From Candidatus Poseidoniales archaeon (GTDB lineage Archaea; Thermoplasmatota; Poseidoniia; Poseidoniales; Poseidoniaceae), in assembly GCA_012959275.1 (NCBI GenBank), contig DUDM01000043.1, positions 2,910-66,909 on the forward strand: DNA of 64,000 bases, given 5' to 3'. The notes under the pieces are model-generated. The model was not told where the DNA came from. It saw only the letters and a list, made by a program, of their open reading frames with translations, and searched no databases. Numbering within the stretch: the first letter of the stretch is position 1; each line of letters starts with the position of its first letter. Shown here piece after piece: positions 2,093 to 58,477 of this stretch. The position numbers were made by a program, and so were the translations under genes.

Positions 2093-2169
2093 GTTATTGT
2101 CGAGTGGCTTCGACTTTTTCAGTGTGTGTCATGATTTTGCTTATTCACTGCTACCTCTTCGCAGCCTGC

Positions 2170-2865
2170 ATGGCGACAGTATTGGAAGGGCGCGGTCTTT
2201 GGAAGATTTACCAAAGTGGTTCAAACAAGATTGAGGCTTTGAGAGAAATTTCATTGACTATTGAGGCAGGTGAAATGGTTGCAATCATGGGTCCAAGTGG
2301 TTGTGGCAAGACCACGCTGTTGAACTGTTTGAGCGGTCTTGATGAATTGACTGCGGGTGAAGTATTGGTTGAAGGTATTTCTTTGACAGCCTCGGATGAT
2401 AAGCATCGAACAAATGTCCGAGGCAGAAATCTTGGCTTCATTTTTCAGAGTTTTAATCTGATTCCAGTACTAACGGCGGTTGAGAATGTCGAGATGCCTC
2501 TTCTTTTACAAGGAATTCCGGCCAAAGAGGCACGTCAACGTTCCTTAGATGCCCTGGATTTAGTTGGCCTGAAGAACTGGTCCACCCATCGCCCGATGGA
2601 GTTGAGCGGAGGGCAGCGACAAAGAGTCACCATTGCCAGAGCCTTTGTCCACGAACCAGCCGTTATTCTGGGGGATGAGCCTACCGGAAATCTCGATACC
2701 CGTACCAGCAACGAGGTCATGGATTTGTTATTCGAATTGAATGCAGAACGCGGCACTACGCTGCTAGTGGTAACTCATGATTCGGAAATTGCTGCCCGCT
2801 GTAGTCGAATCTTGCACATGGAAGACGGTTTAATCGTCAGGGATGAGAAAAGCGAAGAGGAATGA
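2170..2865 (+). CDS. ABC transporter ATP-binding protein, MacB/LolD/FtsE type
   Basis: Walker A GPSGCGKTT, Q-loop, ABC signature LSGGQRQRVTIARA, Walker B ILGDEPTGNLD, H-loop VTHD. Start placed at the internal ATG (MATVLEGRGLWKIY) rather than the ORF-track start at 2104. Directly upstream of the FtsX-type permease. Confidence 0.85.
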   Translation: MATVLEGRGLWKIYQSGSNKIEALREISLTIEAGEMVAIMGPSGCGKTTLLNCLSGLDELTAGEVLVEGISLTASDDKHRTNVRGRNLGFIFQSFNLIPVLTAVENVEMPLLLQGIPAKEARQRSLDALDLVGLKNWSTHRPMELSGGQRQRVTIARAFVHEPAVILGDEPTGNLDTRTSNEVMDLLFELNAERGTTLLVVTHDSEIAARCSRILHMEDGLIVRDEKSEEE

Positions 2866-2874
2866 GGTGTTCTA

Positions 2875-10700: not shown

Positions 10701-10931
10701 TCTGGAAACGTTGTAGCACTATCAGATAAAACTACCCAGATTCGCTATGGTGAACTCGACGATCCAGGCGCAGGCACTGATACTCTCGATGATGACAAGA
10801 GTGGAACAACAGGTGTTCCAACTTGGACATGGGGAGTTATCATCGGCATAGTCGTTGTAGCATTCGGAATTGGCGCATTCATCCTTAGCCGTGGTGGCGA
10901 GGGTGGAGAAGGCAAGGAATGGGATTATTGA
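7758..10931 (+). CDS. Large cell-surface protein (1057 aa): signal peptide, CARDB/Ig-like beta-sandwich domains, C-terminal TM anchor
   Basis: N-terminal signal peptide MKNIVPMTLILLMFASVFANTAW. CARDB-like segment (GDEVNFVVSVKNHGTNNVTEMNIEATIYLADG). Acidic, Thr/Asp-rich Ig-like repeats. C-terminal helix GVIIGIVVVAFGIGAFILS followed by RGGEGGEGKEWDY. Confidence 0.75.
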   Translation: MKNIVPMTLILLMFASVFANTAWIEMNENEMDGAADGRADDDVGILGILEPRATKTDTMTGELRNTVKAGDEVNFVVSVKNHGTNNVTEMNIEATIYLADGTVATDFAGNDLTWLDAVICDDAQSCPVQSLAAGAYLNGGSYSVRDASGAAIAWAAPLGAYTIAIELDVMSGDDDITNDEFTVDITVVNWYDIAIDLEWNPSVEQAEGAGPHDFTLTVSTDGSEEWSARSVVVDLMITGAALDTAVDGDGNDIKGTTTHETGTSQIVDVFFNESAPCDDPGPDNITGTADDGPCDARNGNGSRLVIDYQDSWTYSGTVTPDANANGGYQVEAALVNYTLYGAAAECQESGEVTIDNGPDGIEGTEDDIREIRTFMNICEVPVETDDNNSNNEDKITGFIGSYHNIGVSSLVIAQGYDSTGNGEATSMRGDQDEIDVGFSRLHAMVEHRGSSGTGPYDWEVTFVVTDVYDNNSVVATYTADECPAGVAPPYTHLDLGEGLTAQPAGYACSSHEFDSGTYKITATVAMVNPTNPDESSVDDSQTATVEARNHDPVISLSLTSEGDIVVGDIVSFDVSAFDAEDITGESLTYSWSRITTDSMSVDIGECSPSDDGAGGLTKGERTCAVPVDGSWATTLPVTVKVTDPHGGEASDKVDLKVWNRQVAEATAASDAVSISYDLTYMAVADFSITASDSAAIEGVLLGNSEEGADSVYVIDYAPVTNYGPGDVGSNALSITFPGSSTEDYSLWYQYPGQDWILLDGEAEQDGATNMKLEWVNLTSGTLNNGLLGIFNAAAGTGAVPANGVSNAIGVNMAGGLIAVQWTLENGGVDLLSGDKIQICSVTNANETCTSVDKDATQHLLTGTHGQVFDVTVSVINVNGANANVKTFTTTADAEVSPVPTTTFGSIANGSTAWTFTITTADAGNAVKLYVCWKDSTYEASQLTPDDLSCQPMDIADASVDITKPSVTSETVYHFSIFAEDSSGNVVALSDKTTQIRYGELDDPGAGTDTLDDDKSGTTGVPTWTWGVIIGIVVVAFGIGAFILSRGGEGGEGKEWDY

Positions 10932-11030: not shown

Positions 11031-11490
11031 TAACATCAACAGCACAGCAGTGAGGATTACAATCCTTGGTTGTGTTAATTTCTTGAAATTTTATGTAGCC
11101 GCATTTTGTTGGCAAAAGAAAATTCCACTTGATTTTCAAATGATTATCAGCTCAGGCCATTGGATTATTATTAAAATTGGAAATAATATTCAATGTCAAG
11201 TAATTTCGTCCTCTGATAATACTCCTGTTCTGGCTTAATCCCCATGCCATTTTTCAAATCCTCTAGGCAATATCGCCAAATTAGTTGGAAAATGGCCTCC
11301 GGCCGCGCCTAGTGTATAAGGGTCATCCTACTTACAAACGGATTGTTCTGCCAAGTGCCGGAGAATTGTTACGGAAAAGGGCCTAATCCGCTCTAAGTCT
11401 ATCGCTTTTTCAAATAAGATGTACCCCAACACTCATAAGGAAAACAATTACTCCAGCAGCCTGCATACAGTCCGTAAGGGGTTTGATGAC

Positions 11491-14400
11491 ATGATAAATG
11501 GAAGCAAGATGAAGAAGACAACAATCTGGGGTGGGCTCTTTAGCGCCCTCCTCCTTTGTGCACTGATGGCAATTATGCCATTCAGCAGCATGGTGGATAA
11601 CCCGGTGAGCGAGACTGACTATACAGAGTCAGAAACGGCAGAACAGAAAGATGATCCTTTCCACCTGCCCGAAACGATTGAACAAGTAGAATGGGAGTAT
11701 GCCCTCGAAGATGAACTTCAGGGTATGCGCGATGTAAACCAAAAAGCCTTCGTACACGATGGTGAAATTTCGGTGCTAACAAGCAGCGAACCTTTGCACT
11801 ATCTTGAAGCAGGCGCTTGGGAAAATATCGATACCAACATAGTACCAACCGCATTCGGCTGGGAAGTCTCGAAGAACGTCTTCAAGACTACATTCTCGTC
11901 TGATGTTGGAGCTGGTGTAGCGGTTCAGATGGACCCTAATGTTGACCCAATTATCGTGGGAATTGCCCCACAGATTGTAACTCTCGATGAAGCAGGCGTG
12001 GCGCCGGAAATGCACCATGTTGCACCTTCACATGATGCAATCAGCGTTGGTGGAAATGTAATCCGCTACCCTGTTGCAGATGGTTATGATTTGGATTATG
12101 AGGTTTCATCCGTACAGATGAAGCAGAACCTTGTTATCCGTCAACAGCCAGTTCTCGATGAATCCGTTGCTTGGTTCGGTCTACGCGAAATTATTCGCTT
12201 ACCAGCAGGCTATGCTCTATTCATCGGTGATGAAGTGGTTGGAGAAGAAATCGTCTCTACTCAAGAACTGATGACAATCCGTAGTCTTGAGACTGGAGAG
12301 GTATTAGCAGAAATTCCAGTACCAGTGGTATTGGAACCTGGAGCCGAAGAACAGTACACCGCTACTTTCTTCGTCAGTTTCACTAATGGACAAATCGTCT
12401 TGACTACAGCAATTGATACTGATTGGTTAATGGATGAGGACCGAGTTTTCCCTCTTTCTCTTGACCCAACAATCAAGCGCACGTCATCTACAGGAGGATA
12501 CTGCTATCGCTACTACGCATATTGCTACAGTGGAAATAGCCGTTATTTCTACCGCTATAATGCACGCATCTACTATCTACCTTGGAGCAAGTACCAGTTT
12601 AGTAGCAGCAATGCTATGCCTAGTGGCTCAACAACCTCCTCAGTAAAGTGGAAGCAATATGTTGGCTACAGCAATACCTGGGGAAGTAGTTCCTATGATG
12701 CTGCAATAATGATGACTTGTGGGACTGCAAGTCGTTATTCTTACAGTATTGCCAGTGCATCCTGTTCCAGCACTTTGCTTGGAATGCCCTCAAGTTCCCA
12801 GTATGGGAATACGAAGGCCCGCAAGATGGTTAGTTCCATTTGGAACAGTCCAAGCGTTGGAACCTTTTCCACCGGAACCGGTTGGAAAACAGTTACTGTA
12901 AATAGTGCATATGAGGGTATCATTACAAATGCTGCCAATAATTCTGCATCAATCGGTATGACTCACATCAATACTAACAGTAATTATTACTACATGTATG
13001 CCCGCTATGGCGGTTCATACGACAGTTATTTGGAAATCACCTATACTGGTGGTTCCGATAGCACTCCACCATCTGCTGATTTCGTACCATACGAGGTAAC
13101 ATCGTACAAGGAGGGTGCCCGTACTTTCTTCACCACCCTCACCGATCCCGCTGGTATTGACACAACATCGTCTGGAAACCCACGCCTTTTCTACAAAATA
13201 GGCAGCGGTTCATGGACTGGCGTTAGTGCATCAAGTATTGGAACCTGTAGCAGCAGTGCTGCAAAGTGTAGATTCAAGGCAACTACCGCAAGCATCAGTG
13301 CTGGCGACTCAGTTGACTACTACTGGGCTTTCCAAGACTTGGCATATGCCGCAGGAATGGCACAGTCAAACAACTTCGCCACACTACCTGCTGGTGGAAG
13401 TGGTTCACCAAGTTCAAACACACCACCATCTACAGTCTTTAATTTCGATGTTGAAGACGTGGCTAACGCAGGAACAGCCAGGAAGATGACCATCCTAACT
13501 ACTGATGTACACGCAGGAAACCGCTATACACCATCAAAGTGGTTCGACAGACAGGTCACCTATTACGACGACAATGATGAATATGTATTCGAGTTCGACA
13601 CCTCAGATTGTGGAAGCGGCGCTAGTTCATGTTTCTATGCAACTAGCTATTATTTCTACAGTCAATGGCAGATGCAGTGGACTACTTCACCATCTTCAGG
13701 ATATAATGGACTTGGTGGTACCAAGTCTGGTGATGCAAAATTCCACAAGGATGACTTCGGATACCTATCCATAACCACAAACAATGGGCCTGGAATGAAT
13801 TTGATTTATGTTTATGACAGCACCTCAAATAAGTGGGCAATGGTCGGATTAGGAGATGCAAGCACTGGAATCGATGAGCCACTTTCTGGCGGAGACGTTG
13901 AGCCCTCTTACAGGTCATCCTATGGATATACTCAGGCATACAACATCAAGGTGCCAGGGGATATCACTGGAACATTCGGTAAGTTTGATTTCAATAATAC
14001 TTACTCCTCGAGTAAGGCAAACTGGATGTGCGTTGGGACCAATGGATGGATTTACTTCTTCCGTTCTACCAGCAGTAATCCAATATGCACCTCTGGATAT
14101 TACTACATCTACAGTACCTCCTACAGGTGGAGTGGATTCGCAATGGGTAGCGGCTATTACGGTCGCATGGCAAGTAGCGGAGAGGTTTCCTCCAAGGTTG
14201 GAAGGGTCGCACCAACTCCTGATATTTATGCCCCTGAAATTGTACATTCAGCACTGAAGGACAGTCACTCAAGAGACAGGACCTTCACCTTTGAAATTAC
14301 AGATGCTGGGGACCCCCCATCCGGACTAAACACCTCGTCCGCTGCTGGCGTTGGGCCAACATTGTACTACACAATTACAGATCCTGATGGCACAGTTAAT

Positions 14401-17400
14401 GCGCAACAATCAAAGGTACTATCACCAGATGATACCCGTGCAAACTGTATAGCATCTACATGTGTTTGGAGTGCTGAGTTGACCGACATAGAGCGTGGCG
14501 CATCCCTATCATACCATACCACAGCAAGAGACATATCGACTGTAAGCAGTGGAACAAATAGTGTAACTACTTCTGCTAACAGTTTCGAAGTTGGAGACCC
14601 AAATAAGGTCTTCATCATAGAGTGGCACGACATGGGCTACACCAATTCATACACCTGTACTTATCAGGTCAAATTGTATGATGTAACCAATGAAATAGAG
14701 TTCCACTATGATACTGGCTGCAGGGTCTATTACGACTATGCAACTGTCGGCTATCAAGACAGTACTCGTACAAAGGGTGCAACTCTACGCACAGAACAGG
14801 GCTACATGGCTGGTGGAAATCCACATACTAACAACTACCGTATCACAACAGATGCAAGTAGCCACAGTTCAGAAACTTTTACCGCAGGATTGACTGAGAT
14901 TACCAATTACCAGACTGCAATTGCCGGTAATAGCAACGGTATGCCATACGGATACTATTGTGCTAGCTCCTACTACTGGAACTCTTACAAAAATGGCTGT
15001 GATGCTAACCTCGATATGCCTGATGGTTTCACTTTCGATTACTTCGGAAACACCTTCAATGGTAGTTCTTCTACAAGTCGTGTTATGATTTCAAGACAAG
15101 GTTCGATGTCATTGAAGAGTACATCCTCAACTCAACCTGAGCGCGCAATGACTACTTGGTACACGACAATGCCGAAACTACCATACTCTAGCAACACGTA
15201 CTCAAGAGCAAACTTGATTGCACCATGGTGGGGATACTACACATCCTACTACTGCTATGATAACACTGCTCTCGATTGTGGCGTACGCTACCGCGTAATG
15301 CCATTCGAAGGCAAGGGAACAGATATTGATGCTGACATCACTCAAGATACATCTTGGGATCTTGTTGACAGCCCGATTCGTGTTAACCCAAGCGGTGATT
15401 ACTTGTCCGTTAACGCTAACTTGAATATCGAGCCAGGCGTAGTGGTACAGGTTGCACAGGGCAAGGGAATTTCCTTTGACGGTGCTTGTGATACATTCAC
15501 AGTATCTGGAAATGATACTGATGGTGACAATAATCACGTTCGCTTTGAAGGACAATACGGCCAGACTTGGACCGGTATTGCCTTTACTGACAGTTGTACA
15601 ACAACTGATGGAACAAATGACCGCCACCAATTCTCATATGTAGACTTCGTAAATACTAGTGACTATGCAATTGCAGCAGGTAGCCGCCACGGCAGCAGCC
15701 CAAGCAGCAATGCAAATGTTGGAAACTTTACTATGGACCATGTAACCTTCAGTAATGTGAAGGGTGCCGTTTCACACGGTAGTGGACAAGGTACAGTATT
15801 CGATATCAGTGACTTCGAAGTCAACGATGCGAGCGAGAGTTGTTTCTTGTTCCCTGATGATGCAATTGTAACACTCACTGATGGAGAAATGGATGGTTGC
15901 AACAGCGACAATTCATACCAACATGGAGCAGTTACTGATGCAACCAGTGGCGCAAGTAGTTCCAGTACCGGTACTGCTTCTGGTTCACTCACTGTAGAGA
16001 ACGTAGCAATCACTGATTCTGAAGCAAACTTAATCCGTTCATTTGCAGAAAACATTTACATTTCAAATGTTTCTGCTACATCTAGCGCAAATCAGGCAAG
16101 ATATGCATTGAGGCTACTAGGTAGTGGAGGAAGCGGTACACACAGTGCTGTGATAAACAACTTTACTGCAACATCATATGGTTATGGTGTGAAAATTGGA
16201 GCAGAGGATTCCTACAGTTTAACTAATGTAGACATCGGAACTTCTACTTTAACGCTTAGCCCAGGAACATCGACGACCAGTGGACCTGTTGGAGATGATG
16301 CAGTTATCGATTCATTGGAAGCAGGTGGAATGGGCATTCAACGCACATTGCCAACAATGTCAAATATCGACCTCGGAACTGGTGAGTTATCTATTACTGG
16401 AAACAGCCCATCCTCAACGCAAACAAGCATCTCTGATCTTGATGCAGGCGGCATAGGAGTTTCTGGTTGTGGCTACAACCTATACTTCGGCAACGTGGAT
16501 ATCTCGGATACAAGCGATACTGGATACTTGAGCGGCAGTTGTTCAAGCAGTGCTGCACAAAACACCATCCTCGTTGAAGGCGGAACAATGGCAAGCAGCC
16601 AATCTTCTAACAACATCATCTATGCGCGCAACTCCAAGATAACTCTTGGTGGAGTGGCCATTACAGGTCAGACTGCAATGGGCAACTACGTTGCTAAGGC
16701 AAGCACCAACGGGCGCATCACCTTAATCGATGTCACCTTTGGAGGCAATGATTGTGCTGATGCAGGCGGCGATGCTGGTAATTGCTGGCTTGAGGTTTCC
16801 TCAAGCAGCGGTAGTATTTGGCTAGGTGGAATTGGAACAGCAACCACATTCAAGGAGAAGAATTCAGTTCGAACCCTGAAGCCTGGAACTACTGTAACAT
16901 CATTCGTGATGGACAGTTCCGGTGCATCCTTGTTCATGATTGGAACTCAGGTCACCGACTCCAATGGTGAAGCAGATGTCTGGACAATCTCTGGAACCTG
17001 TGTTAGTGCAGGATGTAGCAGCCACGACCATGGTACCTATTTCGATGCATATGGCCCTGCTGGAATTCACAGCGCTGCCAACACATCATTTGGACTCGGA
17101 GATGACACCTTCCTAAGATTAACACAACCACCAATCACTCTATCGGATAGCGGAATGGATTGTGCTTACTTAGCAACAAACCAGTCGATGTCAGCCCTTG
17201 ATACTGCTGGCGATGGCATTTATATCCTTGATGATGGTTCAATCCTATTGGATGCCGACCTAACACTAGATGGTTGTACAATACAGATGACTGAGTCAAA
17301 ATTCATCATCCGTAGTGATGCAACCAATTCCCCAACTCTAACTATCAACAATGGTGGAGAGTTGGAGATGATTAAAGGATCAGGCGGCACATTTTCAGAA

Positions 17401-20400
17401 TTGAAGGCAGCATCTGCAGCATATCCACTACACATCACTCTCGGTGATGGTGGAACTCTTGACTTGCAGGGTGTTTACGCCCGCAACTTTGCTCAGGACA
17501 GTACTCAACAGGGTGCTCTCATTATTGGCCCTGGAGCAACAGTCAGTTTGACTGACGGCACAGTAGTTTACGGGGATGCGGCAAGTAGCAAAGATATGGC
17601 GACCATCAAGGTAAACGGAGGAACACTTTCTGTTCTCGATGCAAGCGTAATCAACAATGGCGGTACAGGAACTGGAATTTGGTTTGAACAAACATCAAGC
17701 ACACTTTCTGACATTACTGTTAGCAATGCAGAAGTTGGAATGAAGTCGCATAATGCAGCACCTATAGTCAATGGATTTACTCTTTCTAACAATGATGTTG
17801 GATTGGATTTCTATGGTGGCATGTCTCTTCCTACTATTTACCGCAGTACCTTATTGTCTGGTGAGAGCAACGGATGGACAACCTACGGCTTTGATTTAAG
17901 TTCGTTAATCGGTAAGCAATACGTACAACTTGGTTTTGAGTCAGTCTTCGCGGGCGGAAACGCCCACCCAAGATACAATTACTACACAAGCAAGTATTAC
18001 AACATCTACGACCGCATGCAGTATGAGGTCACTCTTGATAACGGCGCAGTATTCAATTATTCAATCGATCAAGCCGGAAAGGACAGTGCAGGATATTGGG
18101 ATGACCCAACATCCGATAGTTCAGACTATGGTGGCTGGGGTAATTACAGCTGTGGCCTATATGGCTATGTGCAGAACCCTGCTTACCGAGATTATGGTTA
18201 TTATTACTATTTCCATAATTACGGACCCTACACTCAAAGCAGTAATGGCTACTATGGCGCAAACGCCGAACCAGATCAGTTCGGATTCCGCTGGGAAGCA
18301 GGAGAAACAAGCACCGCTAGTTCCTTGTATTACCCATACCATTACTGGGGATACTACTGGCCATCTTCCCAATTCGGAAGCAACTACCAAGGTGGAATCT
18401 ATGAACCACCATCCGGTTTTGATGGCTTGTGGAGTAATTACAATGTCTGTATTGATTACGCATATACATACTACCAGAGCCCTGGAACCGGCGCTCGTTT
18501 GGCAATGCCAATTATCGACACACTGAATACAGGTACTAATTCCGGAACCTCTGGAAATATTGTAGGATTGAAATTATACATCGATGTTCTACACAAAGGT
18601 GCCGATTACTATCAGGACCGCTTGGACTTCGTTGGACGTTCATCGAATAATCACAATGATATGGGTGATTGGGCACGTGAATCTGGAAAGCCTACCTTCA
18701 CTCAAGGAACAATCACTGGTGCAGATATAGGAATTGAGATTGGTGGAAACTTTGCAGCAGCAGTTGTTGAAAACGTTGAGATCACCAGCCCAACCACAAC
18801 TGGTTTGAAGGTCTCTGGTTCAACAGCATCCTCATTCGACTACCTGAATGTTTCAGGTGGAAGTTATGGAGCGTACACAACATTGACCAGCCGAGGCAAA
18901 CTCCATTTGAAGAATATTGACTTCGATAATCAAGGCGTTGCTGGTGTTTCTTATCTCAAGGACATAGCCGGTAGTATCTCTGGAAGTGTTACCAACAGCG
19001 CAGGTGCCGCAATTAGCTACGGTGTATTGACTACTGCCGAACGCAATTTAGGAATCGACCTTTCAGGAAATGCAATCGGAGTATTGACTGCAGGAAGTGG
19101 AGATATTAATTTGGAGGGCAACACCTTTGCTAATGCAAAGGACTTCGTAATAAGCGGGTCATCGACGGTGACATTTATTGATGGAACGGTAGATGAAAGT
19201 ACGGTAGACGTGTCAGGCAATGGTGTCTTCAATAGAGCCCGAAGCCTTATCGCATCTATTACTGCTGATTCAAACGATGTTGTCGGCGCTGAGGTATACC
19301 TGATGGATAGCTCTGGGAAACCTACTGGTAACGGCGTTACTGATGCTAATGGTGATGCAGATGGAATCATATACTATACTGCAGTTGTTAACAAGGCAGG
19401 ATTAACTAACCCTGTCCTAGCTGGATACAAGTTAGCAACGGTTGCACAGATTGGCGCATACAGTTCATCAACTGCAGATTTCCGCTACTACTATGATAGC
19501 GTAACTCTCGATGCGAACGCTGCAACAATTGCGGACGTTGCATTAACCAATAAGTTCGATGCAAGGGTTTGCTATAGTTTCACTAGTACTTCATACCATA
19601 TGATTGCACCATGTGCCAGCTCTCTTTCAACAAATGGAAAGAGAACAATTGGTACCATGGTGGAGTATGGATATTATGGAGCAGTAGATTGGGATATGTC
19701 TGGAAAGACGATCATGGTCGACGCACCATACATGTACCTCAAAGGTAAGAGTGGAACCAATATCAACGATTGGAGCGATAGCACCATTATCAATACAGGT
19801 TCTTACGATTATTATGGTACGACTAATTATCGTTCCACATACCCATATAATGCGAAATTCCACGTAGAAAATAGTACTATGATTGCTCTTTCAGGAGTGG
19901 ATGAAAACACTGGAGTGCCATTTGGTTTCGACCTCGGATATTATGCATGGTCAGATGTTAATCCATACTACAAGAACAGCACCTTTATTGGCCTGCAGAC
20001 AATCGCAGCAGCAAATGAATATGGAAACGTAATGCCTGATAGATTCGTCGTTGAAGACAACATTATTGTCAGCAACACACCTGTTGTACCAGGCTCAACC
20101 AGTTTCTACTATGATGAGATGTGTGTTGTGAACGGAGCAGTAAATGGTGCATCAGTTGCAAGGAACCAATTCTCTGGTTGCGCAATTGGAGTTCGCAGCA
20201 TGAATACTATCTACTCCTACTACTATGGGAGAAGCACATGGGGTGCTGATAACATGACCATCGAGGGTAATACCTTCGATGGCGGTGTACTCGATGTATG
20301 GTTCGCTCTTGGCAGTTATTCAGATGACAACGTGGTCAAAGATAACATCCACACGGGTGCTACTCAGACCGAATACGCAATTTATGCACAGGATAGAAAC

Positions 20401-23400
20401 ACTGTACGTCCGGTCATTGAAGGAAACACCATCTATAACTCGAAAGAACCAATCTACATGCGCGGTGCACTAGGCTGGGACATTAGCGAGAACACCATCT
20501 ATGGTGATGGAAATTCCGGACACGCTGGAATTTACGTCAAGGATGGATACGGTTCTATTGATGGAAACATCCTTATCGATGCAGATGGTGGAATCCTCGT
20601 AGACGGTCTATCCTATGGCTACTCAGCCTCGGTGACCAACAACGAGATCTACCAATCCAATGGAAGAACTGCAGTTAGTGCAGTCGGAATTTGGGCAGAA
20701 GATTGTGGAACATCAACTCTCGAGACTGGTGGCAATGACATTACCATAATGGGCAATGCACTTGTCACTGATGGATGCGATATCGAAGATACAGGCAGCG
20801 TATTTACCGGAACCGGCGGAAGCGGCGGAATGGTCTACACTGTCAACATCATGGCAGGTTATTTCGCACCACAGAACTTGAGCATTAACGAAGGAGACAC
20901 TGTCAAGTGGCGCCTACAGAATTACTCGAGTGGCACAAACTACCAACACGGTACCATCTCAAATGATACCGATGGAAGTGGCTCACCACTCTGGGATTCT
21001 GGTGCAATGAACTTGGGAGGTACCTTCACCCACCTCTTCACCACTGCTGGAACCTACAACTACTCTTGTACAAACCACCCTACCACTATGTGGGGAACAA
21101 TCACTGTTGCCTCAGGTTCAACCTCATCTTTCACCAGCATCGGATTAGATGTTGTGGGAAGTAATGATGATGTTTCCTTGAATGGTACAGAAATCAGCGG
21201 CTTCACTACTGCTTACGAGCAATCTGGTGGAAGCCTCTTCCTGAATGGTGGAGCTGATTTGGAAGGTGGCGACTATGCAGTTGACATCGATGGAACTGAT
21301 GTTTCATCAGATGGCGGAATGTTGTCAGCAACCTCTGCTACTGGAGTAGGTCTATACTTCACCGGTGGTGGTGCTCTTGCACTAGTCGATTTATCGACTG
21401 ATGCACCTCAGGGTGTCTACATCGATGGAAGCACAGATGGATTGTTCGACTGGAATGGTGGAACTGTCTACAGTGGTACTGGTCTCTATGCGGTCGACAA
21501 GGCTGAAGGAGATATTCAGAACATGACTTGGACAGACGCAAGCACCCAAATCTATGCGGGTAGCGACACCAAGATTACCAGTGTTGGAAACACACTCGAC
21601 GAGAACAAATTGGTAGTTGTCACCGGTGCAGAAGTTCATGAAGCAAACTTGCTTGACTTGAACGTTAACCACTTAGGTGCAGCATCAAGCAACGTTGGAC
21701 TGTTGATTACTTCCGAGAGCGGCAACAAGGCAGCATACGTTAGCCCTGACATGCGCAATACCGGAGTATTGGCTGTTGGAACATCTGGTGACGCTGGAGA
21801 CTTATCCGACTGGTTCGGTAATGTTGACAACCCATCTGATGACCTGATGCCTGGTGTTATGTCAAGCGATGGCGCTGGTGAAGACTTCATGGCTACATGG
21901 GATGAGACAAACTTGTTCCTCGCTCTAACTGGAGTCGACATGGATAATGGAGATCTAATGATCTTCCTAGACACTGCTGATGATGGAAGCACAGACGGCT
22001 GGGAGTGGGACGGTACAACACCATCCCTCGGCTACAGCGCAAACTATGCTTTCTGGGCAGAGGACGGTAGCGATTCGCCAAATGATGGAGATACAACTTA
22101 CAGTTACTCCTTGAAGAAGTGGCGCGGTGACAAGTGGGATGACAGCCTAGGCTGCACCAACATGGCCGCTCACGTCGGATGGACGGATAACACCAACACA
22201 GAGTTGAAGATTCCGTGGGATTGTATCGGAAGCCCAAGCAACCGCTGGGTCCGCATGTCAGTAGTTGTTCTTGAGGAGACTGGTGGCGTAGTTGCCAGCA
22301 ACCACCCAAGCACCGGCTACCTCAGCATGAACCTCGGCAAGGCTAACCTTGGCGATGGTACTCTATCTGATGAGCGCTTAAACTACCGCAGTTATATCGG
22401 TAGCAACTCGCCAAGCCCATCTGAGGATTACAACATCTTAGCAAAGGTAGCTGCAGATTGCGCAGAAGACTGGGGCAACATCGACGGACTAGATATGTCA
22501 GAAAACCGCGACGAGGACATCGACATTCTACGTGCATGTCCAATCATCACTGGTATTGAAGACGTTTCATACGATGAAGACAGTGGAGCCCAAACCATCT
22601 CCTTGACAGACAAGGCAGATGATGTACAGGATTCGGCAGCTTCTCTATCATGGACTCTTGAAAGCGATGTTGATGCTGATGGCGACTTGTTAACTGTAGT
22701 TCTAGTCGCTCACGACTTGACTATCACGCCTAAGGACAACGAGTTCGGCACCTACCTGATTTTACTAACTGTAGAAGACAGCAATGGTCTAAGCGCTTCC
22801 AAGTCGATGTTGATTACCGTCAACAACGTCAACGATGCACCAACAATCTGCAACACAGGACGCACCGATTGTATGCCAGTGTTCAGCGATGATGGATTCG
22901 ATAACCTAAACGTTCTCGATGAAGGATTCGGTAGCCACAGCAAGCCACTCGGTTTGATTGCAAACAGCGCTGGTTCATACATCACCGATCAGGCCAACGA
23001 GCAAACACAGACTCTATCTAACTCAGAGAATGTACCTCAGGCTTACATCTTCGGTGCAAGCGTACCAGCTGAGTGTGGCGCATTCAGCGTTGCAGTTGCC
23101 AACAATGAGTTGAGCATCACAGAAGTAGCAGATAACGAACTTGGTGGAGTTTGTACAGTCACTCTAACATTGAGCGACGGTGCAAGCGTCAACGATGCAG
23201 CAACAAGTGTTGATGTTGACTTCACAGTCAACCCAGTCAACGATGTGCCAGTTATCCCAGAGTACGATGTCAATACCGATGCACACCTCACCACCGGTGA
23301 GGGGGTTGCAGTTGCAACACCATGGTCAGTATCAGTGACAGAGGACACAGGCTGCGTAAATGCAGTTTGTGCTAACACCGATGCTCTAACCTTCGACCTA

Positions 23401-25008
23401 TCTGGCTTGAAGGCTGATAACGACCACAATGATGCAGACTTAACTTGGACTTGGGTAGAGACATCAAGTTGTGATGTTGACAATTACTTCGAGGATATTT
23501 CCTTTAACGGAAACGATTTGGAGTTCACCCTGATTCAGGATGCAGCAACCAACGTGCCATCTGAGGAAATTGATTTCTTGGATGACGGTGGAATACACCA
23601 GCAAGTGCCACTCAGTGGAGAATACTGTCCGATTAAGGTTGTACTGAGCGATTCGCCAAGTGCACCTTCGTACATCCCTAACTATGGTCTAACTACTGCA
23701 ACATACAACCAAGAGACCACCTCCACAATCTTCAGCATACGTGTTGAGAATACCCGTGAGATGGTAGCAGACTACTTGTTAGATGTAGACACTGGCTTTG
23801 ACTTTAACAGTGTCAACTTCATCATGCCAGGAACTAACATCCCAATTGATGTTGACATCCAGCACGAAGGAGATGAGGGACCATACAAGTACGACCAACT
23901 ACTCAAGGTTCAGTTCTTGAGCAACGGTGCTGGCGGATTAGCCACCAGAGACACACAGTTCATCGTACCACCAGCATGGGGACAATCTGTCAGCCTTGGT
24001 AGCAAGGTACTGATTGATGAGTCAACCACCCGTGTCGGAGTGCGTGTTGACGTCTTGACTTGTAAGGCAGCTTCCTGTCCAAGCCCAAGTGCAGCAACAC
24101 CAACTGACTTCATCACCAACAGCCCAGCAGCACACCGTGCAGCAGACACACCTAACTCCGCATGGAGCGAGCCAGGAGCAATCGGATACGATGCTACTAC
24201 TGGTGTCTACTCACAACGCAGACCTGCACTAGAAGATGGCAACTGGTCAAACAATGCAATGTTCTCATCATTGATTGCATCTGACCCATCAGGTATTCTA
24301 GACAGCGGACAAGATCTACCAGTAATGGTCGACACAATGGCACCATCTGCGGTACCATCTTTCGCACCAGGTCTAGTGGCAATCAGCGCAGCAGGATTAT
24401 TCGTTGCTGGTCTAATGTTGGCAAGTCAACGCCGCATCGATGATGATGAAGAGTTTGTACAATCAGCACTTGTTGATGACGAGCAGGCAGTCAGCCCAGT
24501 TATTGCTACCATCTTGATGGTCGCAATAACAGTGGTTTTGTCTGGTGTAGTATACGTATGGGCCAGTGATCTAGCTGACCAGCCAAGCAAGTCGGTTCCA
24601 CGAATCGCCTTCAAGGTTGAGAAGACAGACCCAGGTACCAACGGATACTGGTCCATCATCGTGACCAGCGCAAAGGAGCCAATAGCAACACAGGCGACTG
24701 TAGTAATGGTCGAGTGGGTCAACGATACCGGAAGTCAAATCGAGTCATTCAAGTTGTCTGATTCTGAGGGCACATACGGTTTCGCCCCGGTCAATTCGGA
24801 AAGCTTCATCACATTCTCTGACAGTATCAAGTGTGAGGCTGCGGATGAGTGCACCTCAACATATGGAGATGGAGATGCAATCCACATCAGGATGAGCGAC
24901 CCGAGTGGTTTCCTGTTAAAGGACAACGGAGTACGTGTTACACTGAAGTACGTCCCACAGGGAGTTGGAACTGCAAGCGTTCTGAAGACCTTCAACCTTG
25001 AAATTTGA
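11491..25008 (+). CDS. Giant cell-surface protein (about 4500 aa; uninterrupted ORF 11419..25008): signal peptide, parallel beta-helix repeats, cadherin-like repeats, embedded cupredoxin domain, C-terminal TM anchor plus pilin-like module
   Basis: Single 13.6-kb ORF with no stop. Likely start at MINGSKMKK (11491) or MKK (11509), which places the signal peptide MKKTTIWGGLFSALLLCALMAIMPFSS at the N-terminus. Ser/Thr/Gly/Tyr/Asn-rich with many N-x-S/T sequons. Beta-helix-like repeats (e.g. NNGGTGTGIWFEQTSSTLSDITVSNAEVGMKS). Cadherin-like repeats with NVNDAPTI / NPVNDVPVI. Cupredoxin domain at 20830-21110. C-terminal hydrophobic anchor ...GLFVAGLMLASQRR followed by a DUF1628/archaeal-pilin-like segment. 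Confidence 0.8.
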   Translation: MINGSKMKKTTIWGGLFSALLLCALMAIMPFSSMVDNPVSETDYTESETAEQKDDPFHLPETIEQVEWEYALEDELQGMRDVNQKAFVHDGEISVLTSSEPLHYLEAGAWENIDTNIVPTAFGWEVSKNVFKTTFSSDVGAGVAVQMDPNVDPIIVGIAPQIVTLDEAGVAPEMHHVAPSHDAISVGGNVIRYPVADGYDLDYEVSSVQMKQNLVIRQQPVLDESVAWFGLREIIRLPAGYALFIGDEVVGEEIVSTQELMTIRSLETGEVLAEIPVPVVLEPGAEEQYTATFFVSFTNGQIVLTTAIDTDWLMDEDRVFPLSLDPTIKRTSSTGGYCYRYYAYCYSGNSRYFYRYNARIYYLPWSKYQFSSSNAMPSGSTTSSVKWKQYVGYSNTWGSSSYDAAIMMTCGTASRYSYSIASASCSSTLLGMPSSSQYGNTKARKMVSSIWNSPSVGTFSTGTGWKTVTVNSAYEGIITNAANNSASIGMTHINTNSNYYYMYARYGGSYDSYLEITYTGGSDSTPPSADFVPYEVTSYKEGARTFFTTLTDPAGIDTTSSGNPRLFYKIGSGSWTGVSASSIGTCSSSAAKCRFKATTASISAGDSVDYYWAFQDLAYAAGMAQSNNFATLPAGGSGSPSSNTPPSTVFNFDVEDVANAGTARKMTILTTDVHAGNRYTPSKWFDRQVTYYDDNDEYVFEFDTSDCGSGASSCFYATSYYFYSQWQMQWTTSPSSGYNGLGGTKSGDAKFHKDDFGYLSITTNNGPGMNLIYVYDSTSNKWAMVGLGDASTGIDEPLSGGDVEPSYRSSYGYTQAYNIKVPGDITGTFGKFDFNNTYSSSKANWMCVGTNGWIYFFRSTSSNPICTSGYYYIYSTSYRWSGFAMGSGYYGRMASSGEVSSKVGRVAPTPDIYAPEIVHSALKDSHSRDRTFTFEITDAGDPPSGLNTSSAAGVGPTLYYTITDPDGTVNAQQSKVLSPDDTRANCIASTCVWSAELTDIERGASLSYHTTARDISTVSSGTNSVTTSANSFEVGDPNKVFIIEWHDMGYTNSYTCTYQVKLYDVTNEIEFHYDTGCRVYYDYATVGYQDSTRTKGATLRTEQGYMAGGNPHTNNYRITTDASSHSSETFTAGLTEITNYQTAIAGNSNGMPYGYYCASSYYWNSYKNGCDANLDMPDGFTFDYFGNTFNGSSSTSRVMISRQGSMSLKSTSSTQPERAMTTWYTTMPKLPYSSNTYSRANLIAPWWGYYTSYYCYDNTALDCGVRYRVMPFEGKGTDIDADITQDTSWDLVDSPIRVNPSGDYLSVNANLNIEPGVVVQVAQGKGISFDGACDTFTVSGNDTDGDNNHVRFEGQYGQTWTGIAFTDSCTTTDGTNDRHQFSYVDFVNTSDYAIAAGSRHGSSPSSNANVGNFTMDHVTFSNVKGAVSHGSGQGTVFDISDFEVNDASESCFLFPDDAIVTLTDGEMDGCNSDNSYQHGAVTDATSGASSSSTGTASGSLTVENVAITDSEANLIRSFAENIYISNVSATSSANQARYALRLLGSGGSGTHSAVINNFTATSYGYGVKIGAEDSYSLTNVDIGTSTLTLSPGTSTTSGPVGDDAVIDSLEAGGMGIQRTLPTMSNIDLGTGELSITGNSPSSTQTSISDLDAGGIGVSGCGYNLYFGNVDISDTSDTGYLSGSCSSSAAQNTILVEGGTMASSQSSNNIIYARNSKITLGGVAITGQTAMGNYVAKASTNGRITLIDVTFGGNDCADAGGDAGNCWLEVSSSSGSIWLGGIGTATTFKEKNSVRTLKPGTTVTSFVMDSSGASLFMIGTQVTDSNGEADVWTISGTCVSAGCSSHDHGTYFDAYGPAGIHSAANTSFGLGDDTFLRLTQPPITLSDSGMDCAYLATNQSMSALDTAGDGIYILDDGSILLDADLTLDGCTIQMTESKFIIRSDATNSPTLTINNGGELEMIKGSGGTFSELKAASAAYPLHITLGDGGTLDLQGVYARNFAQDSTQQGALIIGPGATVSLTDGTVVYGDAASSKDMATIKVNGGTLSVLDASVINNGGTGTGIWFEQTSSTLSDITVSNAEVGMKSHNAAPIVNGFTLSNNDVGLDFYGGMSLPTIYRSTLLSGESNGWTTYGFDLSSLIGKQYVQLGFESVFAGGNAHPRYNYYTSKYYNIYDRMQYEVTLDNGAVFNYSIDQAGKDSAGYWDDPTSDSSDYGGWGNYSCGLYGYVQNPAYRDYGYYYYFHNYGPYTQSSNGYYGANAEPDQFGFRWEAGETSTASSLYYPYHYWGYYWPSSQFGSNYQGGIYEPPSGFDGLWSNYNVCIDYAYTYYQSPGTGARLAMPIIDTLNTGTNSGTSGNIVGLKLYIDVLHKGADYYQDRLDFVGRSSNNHNDMGDWARESGKPTFTQGTITGADIGIEIGGNFAAAVVENVEITSPTTTGLKVSGSTASSFDYLNVSGGSYGAYTTLTSRGKLHLKNIDFDNQGVAGVSYLKDIAGSISGSVTNSAGAAISYGVLTTAERNLGIDLSGNAIGVLTAGSGDINLEGNTFANAKDFVISGSSTVTFIDGTVDESTVDVSGNGVFNRARSLIASITADSNDVVGAEVYLMDSSGKPTGNGVTDANGDADGIIYYTAVVNKAGLTNPVLAGYKLATVAQIGAYSSSTADFRYYYDSVTLDANAATIADVALTNKFDARVCYSFTSTSYHMIAPCASSLSTNGKRTIGTMVEYGYYGAVDWDMSGKTIMVDAPYMYLKGKSGTNINDWSDSTIINTGSYDYYGTTNYRSTYPYNAKFHVENSTMIALSGVDENTGVPFGFDLGYYAWSDVNPYYKNSTFIGLQTIAAANEYGNVMPDRFVVEDNIIVSNTPVVPGSTSFYYDEMCVVNGAVNGASVARNQFSGCAIGVRSMNTIYSYYYGRSTWGADNMTIEGNTFDGGVLDVWFALGSYSDDNVVKDNIHTGATQTEYAIYAQDRNTVRPVIEGNTIYNSKEPIYMRGALGWDISENTIYGDGNSGHAGIYVKDGYGSIDGNILIDADGGILVDGLSYGYSASVTNNEIYQSNGRTAVSAVGIWAEDCGTSTLETGGNDITIMGNALVTDGCDIEDTGSVFTGTGGSGGMVYTVNIMAGYFAPQNLSINEGDTVKWRLQNYSSGTNYQHGTISNDTDGSGSPLWDSGAMNLGGTFTHLFTTAGTYNYSCTNHPTTMWGTITVASGSTSSFTSIGLDVVGSNDDVSLNGTEISGFTTAYEQSGGSLFLNGGADLEGGDYAVDIDGTDVSSDGGMLSATSATGVGLYFTGGGALALVDLSTDAPQGVYIDGSTDGLFDWNGGTVYSGTGLYAVDKAEGDIQNMTWTDASTQIYAGSDTKITSVGNTLDENKLVVVTGAEVHEANLLDLNVNHLGAASSNVGLLITSESGNKAAYVSPDMRNTGVLAVGTSGDAGDLSDWFGNVDNPSDDLMPGVMSSDGAGEDFMATWDETNLFLALTGVDMDNGDLMIFLDTADDGSTDGWEWDGTTPSLGYSANYAFWAEDGSDSPNDGDTTYSYSLKKWRGDKWDDSLGCTNMAAHVGWTDNTNTELKIPWDCIGSPSNRWVRMSVVVLEETGGVVASNHPSTGYLSMNLGKANLGDGTLSDERLNYRSYIGSNSPSPSEDYNILAKVAADCAEDWGNIDGLDMSENRDEDIDILRACPIITGIEDVSYDEDSGAQTISLTDKADDVQDSAASLSWTLESDVDADGDLLTVVLVAHDLTITPKDNEFGTYLILLTVEDSNGLSASKSMLITVNNVNDAPTICNTGRTDCMPVFSDDGFDNLNVLDEGFGSHSKPLGLIANSAGSYITDQANEQTQTLSNSENVPQAYIFGASVPAECGAFSVAVANNELSITEVADNELGGVCTVTLTLSDGASVNDAATSVDVDFTVNPVNDVPVIPEYDVNTDAHLTTGEGVAVATPWSVSVTEDTGCVNAVCANTDALTFDLSGLKADNDHNDADLTWTWVETSSCDVDNYFEDISFNGNDLEFTLIQDAATNVPSEEIDFLDDGGIHQQVPLSGEYCPIKVVLSDSPSAPSYIPNYGLTTATYNQETTSTIFSIRVENTREMVADYLLDVDTGFDFNSVNFIMPGTNIPIDVDIQHEGDEGPYKYDQLLKVQFLSNGAGGLATRDTQFIVPPAWGQSVSLGSKVLIDESTTRVGVRVDVLTCKAASCPSPSAATPTDFITNSPAAHRAADTPNSAWSEPGAIGYDATTGVYSQRRPALEDGNWSNNAMFSSLIASDPSGILDSGQDLPVMVDTMAPSAVPSFAPGLVAISAAGLFVAGLMLASQRRIDDDEEFVQSALVDDEQAVSPVIATILMVAITVVLSGVVYVWASDLADQPSKSVPRIAFKVEKTDPGTNGYWSIIVTSAKEPIATQATVVMVEWVNDTGSQIESFKLSDSEGTYGFAPVNSESFITFSDSIKCEAADECTSTYGDGDAIHIRMSDPSGFLLKDNGVRVTLKYVPQGVGTASVLKTFNLEI
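20830..21110 (+). other. Cupredoxin (type-1 blue copper, plastocyanin/halocyanin-like) domain embedded in the giant surface protein
   Basis: MVYTVNIMAGYFAPQNLSINEGDTVKWRLQNYSSGTNYQHGTISND...GTYNYSCTNHPTTMWGTITVA. Upstream His ligand (YQHG) and C-x2-H-x3-M (YSCTNHPTTM) on a beta-sandwich-like sequence, the T1 copper ligand set. In frame with the giant ORF. Confidence 0.6.
24487..25008 (+). other. Archaeal type IV pilin / DUF1628 (archaeal flagellin N-terminal-like) module forming the last 173 aa of the giant ORF
   Basis: AVSPVIATILMVAITVVLSGVVYVWASD... matches the hallmark hydrophobic N-terminus of archaeal class-III-signal-peptide pilins (consensus roughly [KR]G-VSPVIATVLLIAITVVLAAVLY), followed by a beta-rich domain of about 140 aa. 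Here it is preceded by a TM anchor (24337-24435) and a 17-aa acidic linker instead of a short basic leader. Confidence 0.5.
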
Positions 25009-29819: not shown

Positions 29820-29828
29820 GGTGAGAAT

Positions 29829-30899: not shown

Positions 30900-30908
30900 G
30901 GTGATAAG

Positions 30909-35657: not shown

Positions 35658-35681
35658 GCCTTTGCCGCTCTCCCATTATGC

Positions 35682-36929: not shown

Positions 36930-36979
36930 GTTGCTGCGTGGCAGGCGAAAACCTTTGACATTGTGACAGCAGCGCATGT

Positions 36980-43737: not shown

Positions 43738-43819
43738 ATATTGTTTGTAGAGCCATCTTATTCATCAAGGTTGGCTTGCCGACGATTTGAAGGGGGATAG
43801 GTGCAGCCCAAGGCTTGTA

Positions 43820-43892
43820 GGGCCCGTGGTCTAGTGGTTATGACAACGCCCTTACAAGGCGTGGATCACCGGTTCAAATCCGGTCGGGCCCA
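43820..43892 (+). tRNA. tRNA-Val (anticodon UAC)
   Basis: GGGCCCG/CGGGCCC acceptor, anticodon stem ACGCC/GGCGU with loop CUUACAA (UAC), T-arm ACCGG-UUCAAAU-CCGGU, discriminator A. 73 nt, no encoded CCA. Confidence 0.85.
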
Positions 43893-44015
43893 CTAAAAGT
43901 TGCTAACAGCCTCGGCAATGAAGGGATTTGCACTCAACTGAGCAATTCATGGGAAGAACCCTCAAGGGTGGATGTCTACAAAACCTTTGAATGGCAGTTC
44001 TAGCCACCGTATAGG

Positions 44016-58407: not shown

Positions 58408-58477
58408 CAAAAAACAATATTCCGGCCTCTCGGCACTGAATCAACAATAAATCATCAAACATCGTTGATTCAGTGCC
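58408..58477 (-). terminator. Perfect 14-bp inverted repeat hairpin plus T6 tract immediately 3' of the tRNA(CAU) on its strand (putative terminator or processing element)
   Basis: GGCACTGAATCAAC-(18-nt loop)-GTTGATTCAGTGCC at 58432-58477. The right arm overlaps the last 4 nt of the tRNA. On the tRNA strand it is followed by TTTTTT (58408-58416 on +). A second hairpin GTGAATCG-cttt-CGATTCAC (58379-58398) and a G8/C8 homopolymer (58368-58375) follow. Confidence 0.4.

Follow-up and report, generated by a model that had tools for sequence, protein, structure and literature searches.

The closest solved relative of the domain described here is Nmar_1307, the 'purple cupredoxin' of the marine archaeon Nitrosopumilus maritimus (PDB 5fc9), a small stand-alone protein of ~95 residues that lacks an axial Met. 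Previous work showed that the reactivity of Nmar_1307 stems from an open axial site where water is bound (PMC12109610), and that the protein oxidizes NO to nitrite (activity cited in PMC6790972). The archaeal extracytoplasmic type-1 copper cupredoxins also include the halocyanins, small lipid- or transmembrane-anchored carriers of the respiratory chain, which Poseidoniales also encode and transcribe at high levels (PMC9723583).

The uncultured Poseidoniales are some of the most abundant archaea in surface seawater, and their cell envelope is almost uncharted. Here, we analyzed 64,000 nucleotides of DNA from a Candidatus Poseidoniales archaeon (the window), which encode a cupredoxin domain with the same His...Cys-x2-His arrangement as Nmar_1307. 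Unlike Nmar_1307, this domain has an axial Met (Met3224) and sits in a 4,529-aa protein. It resembles the halocyanins in being archaeal, predicted to be extracytoplasmic and of the type-1 copper kind, but it is an insert in a giant beta-helix protein instead of a small anchored carrier.

The giant protein and its cupredoxin module

The giant is encoded by a single ORF of 4,529 aa (positions 11419..25008, + strand); translation probably begins at Met31 (11509), and a signal or anchor helix, MKKTTIWGGLFSALLLCALMAIMPF, comes next. The protein aligns colinearly from end to end with the orthologues P0010, P0012 and P0014 (4,539-4,640 aa, mean identity 0.44), and the source annotations of its family read 'flagellin-like protein' or 'type IV pilin'. 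Reading of the sequence near the C-terminus revealed a putative transmembrane anchor, VPSFAPGLVAISAAGLFVAGLMLA (24352..24426, +), followed by RR and an acidic loop, a layout that was also found in P0009, P0010, P0012, P0014 and P0144. Downstream of this anchor lies a hydrophobic segment of the archaeal type IV pilin or archaellin N-terminal type, AVSPVIATILMVAITVVLSGVVYVW (24478..24693, +), which was recognized by Pfam PF07790 (38.4 bits, cut-off 25.2) and TIGR02537 (42.3 bits, cut-off 20) and is followed by a C-terminal domain of ~150 aa. The pilin-type segment is not at the N-terminus of the precursor: it begins at residue 4354-4357 of 4,529, past a 4.3-kaa ectodomain and the transmembrane helix, and its internal position is the same in orthologues. 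Because of the N-terminal signal helix and the C-terminal transmembrane anchor, the cupredoxin domain is predicted to lie outside the cell.

The gene is syntenic in L084, L085 and L086, each of which encodes a protein of ~1,050 aa directly upstream of it. The corresponding partner in the window is an acidic protein of 1,057 aa with a signal peptide and a C-terminal transmembrane anchor (7758..10931, +), for which no family match was obtained. Farther upstream (2104..7581, +) are an ABC ATPase (2104-2865) and a 1,568-aa MacB/FtsX-type permease (2875-7581); of the three orthologous loci examined, two share these neighbors in synteny. A functional tie to the adjoining alpha-amylase and sugar-transporter genes was rejected, because these form a window-specific island that is absent at the same position in 2 orthologous loci. 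We moderately favor, jointly with the overall explanation given below, that the giant is a Sec-exported, membrane-anchored envelope protein with conserved synteny across Ca. Poseidoniales (Marine Group II); the assignment to this group follows the source names of close homologues.

Translation of positions 20830-21110 (+) yielded exactly MVYTVNIMAGYF...GTYNYSCTNHPTTMWGTITV, in frame within the giant ORF, and the reverse strand over this stretch is rich in stops. A preliminary description of the DNA had noted a stretch of ~95 aa bearing His...Cys-x2-His-x3-Met near residue 3140 of a protein of ~4500 aa; both the stretch and its location were confirmed by translation and alignment of the ligand columns, the domain spanning residues 3138-3231 of 4,529. 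Codon 3231 ends at 21111, one base beyond the end given earlier, so the domain occupies 20830..21111 (+). The profile search and structure prediction that the same description proposed both identified a cupredoxin. Against a gathering cut-off of 21.2 bits, a 133-aa excerpt scored 32.3 for PF00127 (Copper-bind) and the entire protein 25.8, and the AlphaFold2 model of the domain showed a confident cupredoxin fold (pLDDT 89.7, pTM 0.79). When this model was compared with the PDB by Foldseek, the top matches were solely cupredoxins, at a probability of 1.00 (5fc9, plastocyanins, amicyanins and pseudoazurins), with target-normalized TM scores of 0.66-0.82 for the best matches and 0.79, at 31% identity, for the top match, 5fc9_A. 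This structure was also the best match in a sequence search of the PDB (E 2.4e-9), with plastocyanins and amicyanins next. AlphaFold2 and Foldseek agree on a Greek-key beta-sandwich. We conclude that residues 3138-3231 form a true cupredoxin module of the PF00127 family, with a match far beyond chance. A profile of the domain detected no second cupredoxin in the six-frame translation of the window.

The preliminary description had also depicted the giant as dominated by beta-helix and cadherin-like repeats, and the first part of this picture was supported for the segment around the cupredoxin. Right-handed parallel beta-helix rungs were assigned directly upstream of the cupredoxin (residues 2950-3131; 20266..20811, +) and downstream of it (residues 3241-3410; 21139..21648, +), and the two sets were modeled as continuous. 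In a 471-residue model (2950-3420) built from an 8-sequence alignment, the segment is predicted to form one unbroken right-handed beta-helix from which the cupredoxin departs as a side excursion, and its fold matched solved beta-helix proteins of the pectin-lyase-like type. The cadherin-like part was not borne out: no cadherin or cadherin-like family reached threshold in the giant, scanned whole and in 700-aa pieces, and the nearest sub-threshold repeat matches were Big_9 (20 vs 23.6 bits) and the tandem-95 repeat (35.3 vs 90 bits).

Conservation of the copper ligands

Comparison with 5fc9 and 54 related domains showed that His3177, Cys3217, His3220 and Met3224 occupy the canonical ligand columns. 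The N-terminal ligand, His3177 (20947..20949, +), aligns with the His ligand of 5fc9 and is invariant both in 55 aligned cupredoxin domains and in the full set of 48 non-redundant orthologues. The other three residues lie in the loop Cys3217-Thr-Asn-His3220-Pro-Thr-Thr-Met3224 (21067..21090, +), with codons at 21067-21069 (Cys3217), 21076-21078 (His3220) and 21088-21090 (Met3224) and the spacing Cys-x2-His-x3-Met. While His, Cys and His align with ligands of 5fc9, Met3224 aligns with a Val. In the 55-sequence subfamily alignment, Cys, His and Met were each at least 90% conserved.

A single-sequence scan of the genome collection yielded just 3 loci; metagenomic orthologues were instead retrieved by an alignment-based scan with search patterns that contained no ligand residue. 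The cupredoxin domain was present in all 59 of the 59 metagenomic orthologues spanning the region, and the H/C/H/M set was found in 68 of 79 aligned orthologous sequences; the other 11 include 3 truncated or frameshifted fragments and 1 sequence missing just the His column. Clustering at 90% identity left 48 non-redundant representatives with a median identity to the window of 53%. Conservation of the ligands in homologous giants, which the preliminary description had suggested checking, was evident in this set, 42 of the 48 (88%) having kept all four. The ligand columns showed conservation of 1.00 (His), 0.88 (Cys), 0.94 (His) and 0.96 (Met) versus a domain mean of 0.65, and all four were among the 21 best-conserved of 91 columns (P ~0.002 for four random columns, hand calculation). 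The cupredoxin segment as a whole was conserved at 0.54 versus 0.44 for the entire giant.

The Cys was lost in 6 of the 48 non-redundant orthologues (3 to Asp, 3 to Ser), and 4 of these 6 also lacked His or Met. Decayed sets among the aligned orthologues were HS-M, HSMM, HSAV and HDAI. Replacement of Cys by Asp was recurrent (P0004, P0006 and L040/L046), and the lineages with ligand loss also include P0012, P0064 and P0136. Because ~12% of the non-redundant orthologues have lost the Cys, the giant can work without a blue-copper site. The ligand loop varied in length (x2, x3 and x4), being mostly of the amicyanin type, Cys-x2-His-x2-Met, with few of the plastocyanin type (x4), and the Met was kept in every length variant. 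The ratio of domain to flank identity was 0.84-1.22 in ligand-less orthologues, and its median was 0.90 in intact ones. Altogether, these alignments suggest that the type-1 copper site is under selection in most lineages, including that of the window.

Possible roles of the copper site

The explanation that we moderately favor is that a cupredoxin module with a complete type-1 (blue) copper site is inserted laterally in the continuous beta-helix of a Sec-exported, membrane-anchored giant of Ca. Poseidoniales with conserved synteny, and that these cells probably display a one-electron copper center on their surface. The predicted site would be loaded with copper outside the cell and would act as a one-electron redox center at the cell surface. 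Both chain termini of cupredoxins are found on the far side of the fold from the copper site; by analogy, the copper end should therefore face outward from the beta-helix, within reach of a diffusible partner. Candidates for such a partner are a metal complex, a small redox-active molecule and a small carrier of the halocyanin type. Since the giant has a single cupredoxin and no heme CxxCH motif, and the window showed no further redox or copper genes, no electron path to or from the membrane is visible. Furthermore, because ligand-less lineages keep an equally conserved scaffold, the module appears to have a copper-independent structural role in the stalk. The readings offered in the preliminary description, namely extracellular electron transfer or oxidative chemistry coupled to particle or polymer binding, or a structural copper site, received partial support.

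A rather unlikely alternative is that copper is bound merely as a stabilizing or structural metal, or as a switch for stalk rigidity, with no dedicated electron partner and with the cupredoxin serving mainly as a rigid beta-sandwich knob. This would fit the occurrence of the domain in every orthologue whatever its ligand status, the equal conservation of the scaffold where ligands are missing, and the isolation of the single copper center, with neither a wire-like chain nor a neighboring partner gene. However, we know of no type-1 copper site with a purely structural role, and 88% of lineages, at 40-86% identity, have retained the complete ligand set with its weak axial Met (0.96), which fits redox tuning rather than mere metal binding; the Met is also retained across the x2, x3 and x4 loop variants. 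We consider it quite improbable that the scaffold acts alone in vivo, as a metal-free spacer or binding module whose ligands persist by ancestry. Degenerate sites with an intact scaffold do occur in 6 of the 48 lineages, and copper-free cupredoxin-fold domains are common in other families, e.g. the early nodulin-like relatives of phytocyanins, but the ligand columns are far better conserved than the domain mean across orthologues with as little as 40% identity, and other ligands often decay where the Cys is lost, a pattern expected if the residues are constrained solely as a functional set.

A role in copper handling, in which the module would bind or oxidize copper at the surface for resistance or acquisition, as do periplasmic cupredoxin-like copper-resistance proteins, strikes us as very improbable. 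A predicted high-affinity copper site is exposed to seawater, and the recurrent replacement of Cys by Asp could retune metal preference; against this, neither the window nor the syntenic loci examined showed a P-type ATPase, chaperone or multicopper oxidase for copper homeostasis, the domain is devoid of His/Met-rich tracts, and one site per 4,529 residues would be a very costly sink. Least probable, in our view, is a small-molecule oxidase or reductase site resembling that of Nmar_1307, even though 5fc9 is the best match by both sequence and fold and a C-S-x-H-P-W motif is common to Nmar_1307 and many orthologues of the giant. The reactivity of Nmar_1307 comes from the open, water-occupied axial position (PMC12109610), whereas here an axial Met is present and 96% conserved in orthologues, so that the site should be coordinatively saturated; assignment to the open-site purple cupredoxins was rejected on the same grounds.

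Returning to a laterally inserted, redox-active module, we also considered that an outward-facing type-1 copper center on a core giant envelope protein of the surface ocean's most abundant planktonic archaea does extracellular one-electron chemistry, a speculative and unlikely extension. Metal-organic complexes, reactive oxygen species or dissolved organic matter might, for example, undergo redox cycling at such a center; alternatively, the center might feed an oxidative step of polymer breakdown by the beta-helix stalk. Lineages with Asp or Ser in place of Cys would then represent evolutionary retunings or losses of the extracellular chemistry.

The giant appears to be a conserved, syntenic envelope component of ~4,500 residues whose sole recognizable functional center, besides the pilin-like tail, is a blue-copper site under apparent purifying selection. 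If the site is redox-active at the surface, it would tie Poseidoniales to extracellular copper-dependent redox chemistry and to marine copper demand; if the domain is just a structural knob, the giant would represent ordinary domain recruitment.

Relationship to other copper and beta-helix proteins

The fold and the four ligands of the window domain are those of the soluble type-1 copper electron carriers amicyanin, plastocyanin and pseudoazurin, but the domain differs in its x3 loop, in not being a free carrier, and in lacking a recognized partner such as MADH or cytochrome f. The preliminary description had called it plastocyanin/halocyanin-like, which is accurate as to the cupredoxin fold (PF00127, AlphaFold2 and Foldseek) and not as to family membership: it scored 33.9 bits for plastocyanin (TIGR02656; equivalog cut-off 87.85) and 27.2 bits for the halocyanin domain (TIGR03102; subfamily cut-off 93.8). 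Amicyanin was likewise rejected (TIGR02657, 24.7 bits; equivalog cut-off 110.2), its loop being x2 and that of the window domain x3. A fragment of a multicopper oxidase or nitrite reductase was rejected because a six-frame search of the window showed no cupredoxin besides the one in the giant, and a heme-based electron wire because the giant has no CxxCH motif. The orthologues offer bioinorganic chemistry a natural series on one scaffold, with x2, x3 and x4 loops and Cys-to-Asp replacements, which parallels the loop-swap and Cys-to-Asp variants engineered in azurin.

Compared with the beta-helix adhesins and polysaccharide depolymerases Vag8, pertactin, PfbA, phage tailspikes and PL6 lyases, the host segment shows only 8-15% identity, and none of these structures is described with a copper domain insert. 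Plant phytocyanins and early nodulin-like proteins also display a cupredoxin at the surface within a larger extracellular protein, and their family mixes full type-1 sites with ligand-less members that retain the fold; these proteins are eukaryotic, GPI-anchored and small, and their likeness to the giant is at the superfamily level.

A literature search for cupredoxins or copper in giant or adhesion proteins of Marine Group II, or for tandem cupredoxins at the surface, found nothing relevant. The preliminary description had regarded a copper center on a giant protein as unusual. However, metagenomes commonly encode secreted multi-cupredoxin proteins, giants among them, and the architecture is therefore unstudied rather than unique. 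The nearest non-orthologous relatives (30-45% identity) are secreted proteins from metagenomes in which PF00127 domains recur 3-12 times in tandem, PKD-containing giants among them (P0011, P0015, P0023 and P0033). These share with the window domain the signature H-T-x-T-S...W-D-S-G...C-x2-H-x2-3-M, and are likewise extracellular, multidomain and uncharacterized. Whereas the tandem proteins carry many cupredoxins on Pro/Thr/Ala linkers, in a possible electron relay, the window protein carries one cupredoxin within a beta-helix.

A cupredoxin domain in the giant surface protein

The peptide quoted in the preliminary description was found to be the exact translation of positions 20830-21110 on the + strand, and stops interrupt the reading of the opposite strand. 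Its in-frame placement in a protein of ~4500 aa was borne out, as the stretch forms residues 3138-3231 of a single ORF of 4,529 aa (11419..25008, +; hereafter the giant). The proposed copper ligands are encoded on the + strand by the codons for His3177 (20947-20949), Cys3217 (21067-21069), His3220 (21076-21078) and Met3224 (21088-21090), and these positions give the Cys-x2-His-x3-Met spacing that had been claimed.

The domain exceeded the gathering score (21.2) of Pfam PF00127 (Copper-bind), both in a 133-aa excerpt (32.3 bits) and in the whole giant (25.8 bits), and scored under the threshold of PF13473, the other family that had been named. The top match in a PDB sequence search was 5fc9_A, the blue copper domain protein Nmar_1307 of Nitrosopumilus maritimus (E 2.4e-9), followed by plastocyanins, amicyanins and the cupredoxin domains of nitrite reductases; His, Cys and His of the giant aligned with His, Cys and His of 5fc9, and its Met lay opposite Val. 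In an alignment of the window domain with 54 related domains, the first His was invariant and Cys, His and Met were each at least 90% conserved. The AlphaFold2 model based on this alignment (mean pLDDT 89.7, pTM 0.79) contained six DSSP strands of at least 3 residues plus short bridges, a predicted pattern consistent with the cupredoxin sandwich. Foldseek comparison of the model with the PDB returned only cupredoxins at probability 1.00, with 5fc9_A as the best match (target-normalised TM 0.79, 31% identity), then plastocyanins, pseudoazurins and amicyanins. Together, sequence and predicted structure show a complete putative type-1 ligand set on a cupredoxin fold in the giant.

Within the cupredoxin superfamily the domain is unremarkable, and it falls in none of the named subfamilies. 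Its NCBIfam scores rejected plastocyanin (33.9 vs a cut-off of 87.85), halocyanin (27.2 vs 93.8) and amicyanin (24.7 vs 110.2). A profile derived from the same alignment was run against the giant and against the window translated in all six frames and found this cupredoxin alone, and therefore a piece of a multicopper oxidase or nitrite reductase was also ruled out. The giant lacks a CxxCH haem motif.

Conservation of the ligands among orthologues

An exhaustive search of representatives gave 4,307 matches, and the orthologues with beta-helix flanks fell into ~15 clusters at 50% identity. Metagenome contigs were scanned with an orthologue alignment, using two search patterns in the beta-helix flank and first strand, away from the ligands; the domain was absent from 0/59 loci spanning the flanks and the domain. 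All four ligands (H/C/H/M) were present in 68/79 aligned orthologous sequences, the remaining 11 including three truncated or frameshifted fragments and one without the His column only. In a 90% identity set of 48 representatives, obtained after four fragments were dropped, 42 (88%) had full H/C/H/M, with domain identities to the window of 40-86% (median 53%) and a His-to-Met spacing of x2 in 29, x3 in 11 (the window among these) and x4 in 2; the six exceptions read HDHM (twice), HDAI, HS-M, HSMM and HSAV. Column conservation was 1.00 for the first His, 0.88 for Cys, 0.94 for the second His and 0.96 for Met, vs a mean of 0.65 across the domain, and all four ligand columns were among the 21 best conserved of 91 (P ~0.002 for four random columns, by hand arithmetic). 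Conservation of the ligands in homologous giants, which the preliminary description had proposed to check, is thus upheld, and it follows that purifying selection acts on the putative copper site in the majority of lineages, that of the window among them.

The domain/flank conservation ratio was 0.84-1.22 in the ligand-less orthologues vs a median of 0.90 in intact ones. From this equal conservation it follows that the scaffold has an additional role, independent of copper. Among the variants, Asp replaces Cys with both His and Met retained in two proteins (P0004, P0006) and with the second His and Met gone at two metagenome loci (L040:1501-2157, L046:6-602); Ser replaces Cys, with the second His gone, in three proteins (P0012, P0064, P0136). 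Since Cys-to-Asp requires two base changes and was seen repeatedly, in at least 3 of the variant sequences, it is unlikely to be a sequencing error. In these natural variants of the type-1 site, the change to Asp resembles that in engineered Cys-to-Asp azurin.

The host protein and its gene neighbourhood

Near homologues of the giant carry the source names Candidatus Poseidoniaceae, Poseidoniales or 'Euryarchaeota archaeon' MAGs. Another copy, 67% identical, lies on contig CAXRJJ010000049.1, filed under an alphaproteobacterial 'Yoonia sp.' MAG, probably by mis-binning. Three full-length orthologues (P0010, P0012 and P0014; 4,539-4,640 aa) are colinear with the giant end to end at a mean identity of 0.44, vs 0.54 in the cupredoxin segment. 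In all orthologues a signal or anchor helix stands at the N-terminus, and towards the C-terminus come a TM helix, then RR with an acidic loop, then a AVSPVIATILMVAITVVLSGV segment that hardly varies, and finally a domain of ~150 aa; the cupredoxin domain is thus extracellular, on the beta-helix stalk. In the giant this tail occupies residues 4312-4529 (24352-25008), in the order TM helix, RR-plus-acidic loop, AVSPVIATILMVAITVVLSGVVYVW segment and C-terminal domain. The AVSPVIATILMVAITVVLSGV segment matches archaeal type IV pilin N-terminal profiles (PF07790, 38.4 vs 25.2 bits; TIGR02537, 42.3 vs 20), which is why the family goes under the names 'flagellin-like' or 'type IV pilin' in the sources. 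It is odd that AVSPVIATILMVAITVVLSGVVYVW, a canonical archaeal type IV pilin/archaellin N-terminal segment, sits at residue ~4357 and not at the N-terminus, and every full-length orthologue keeps this internal class III signal-type segment, which might serve as a hairpin anchor or as a prepilin-peptidase site releasing a pilin-like piece. The remainder of the giant matched no Pfam family above threshold, Ig-like matches near residues 3720-3810 being sub-threshold. The cadherin-like repeats previously ascribed to it were not supported, as Pfam and NCBIfam scans matched no cadherin family there; such repeats are present in the window in a different gene (54471-57212, +), whose 913-aa product has bacterial Ig (Big_9) and cadherin-like (Cadherin_4) matches.

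On its 5' side the giant is preceded by an ABC ATPase, a MacB/FtsX permease (2875-7581) and a 1,057-aa acidic protein (7758-10931), and a HAD hydrolase lies downstream. The permease is unusually large (1,568 aa), FtsX and MacB_PCD matching its C-terminal ~400 residues only; the acidic protein, which adjoins it, has a signal peptide, a C-terminal TM anchor and no family match. A ~1,050-aa protein lies immediately before the giant in 3/3 other loci, the ABC/FtsX pair recurs in 2/3, and the HAD hydrolase follows in 2/2 that reach past the giant. The wider gene order is kept too: both far-reaching loci contain PIN, DNA polymerase small subunit, CinA, Pelota and FTHFS along with the giant, and one or other of the two also has VTT, PfkB/aldolase or flotillin. 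Because gene order is common to other loci, the giant is a core gene and not an adhesin carried on an island. The ABC/FtsX pair and the ~1,050-aa protein may together form an envelope module.

A 15.6-kb alpha-glucan utilisation cluster (25838-41452) separates the HAD gene from that of the DNA polymerase small subunit; it comprises a sugar ABC transporter, a 1,042-aa GH13 with a CBM48-like module, a phosphorylase-like gene, a GH77 and a 1,490-aa GH57 that ends in a glucodextranase C-terminal module. Two other Poseidoniales loci lack the cluster at the corresponding place in the gene order, and it looks like an inserted, window-specific island, so reading the giant's function from it was discarded. 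Elsewhere, Rfam places a 130-nt tRNA at 58474-58603 (-), missing from the ARAGORN output and overlapping the start of an ORF listed at 58508; its length suggests an intron-containing archaeal tRNA. The ARAGORN 'tmRNA' at 43470-43893 (+), which overlaps tRNA-Val (43820-43893), is almost certainly a false positive in this archaeal host, and Rfam found no tmRNA there.

Proposed role and comparison with known cupredoxins

Outside the orthologues, the domain is closest to uncharacterised secreted proteins, numbering in the hundreds, in which 3-12 PF00127 domains stand in tandem; among them are proteins of 2,938 and 3,670 aa in which PKD domains are present as well. Examples (P0011, P0015-P0035, P0023, P0033, P0054) combine tandem type-1 copper cupredoxins with Pro/Thr/Ala-rich linkers, and some reach 2,500-3,700 aa, with PKD domains and long C-x-P-H-G-x-P-G-G-x-G-M loops. 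This large and apparently unstudied population could act as extracellular copper-based electron relays. A literature search found no paper on very large extracellular copper-domain proteins or on this Poseidoniales giant. The preliminary description had called a copper centre on a giant protein unusual; very large copper-domain proteins are already in databases, and what is new is one cupredoxin inserted into a beta-helix, its location on a giant envelope protein that belongs to the core genes of an archaeal order both abundant and uncultured, and a series of natural variants that differ in loop length or have Asp or Ser in place of Cys.

On balance, we lean towards the domain being a redox module, in which copper would be bound at the site and single electrons exchanged. 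Both termini of a cupredoxin lie at the end opposite the copper, which implies that the copper end should point off the helix, where it would be open to a diffusible partner. No wire from the copper site to the membrane is visible (one centre, no haem, no adjoining redox gene), and the rest of the window yielded no copper or redox gene. Poseidoniales encode small halocyanin and plastocyanin carriers that are highly transcribed (PMC9723583); these would be candidate partners, and nothing in these data links them to the giant.

Copper might instead be a stabilising metal, which we consider unlikely; the scaffold's conservation in ligand-less orthologues favours this reading and that of a scaffold free of metal, the conserved ligand columns count against both, and the metal-free scaffold appears improbable. 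Copper handling is more doubtful still. Least probable in our estimate is a small-molecule oxidase resembling the best structural match, Nmar_1307, which oxidises NO (PMC6790972); it is disfavoured by the conserved Met of the giant's domain. Nmar_1307 has a water in the axial place instead of Met (PMC12109610), whereas the window domain, with its Met present, should be a closed, ordinary type-1 site.
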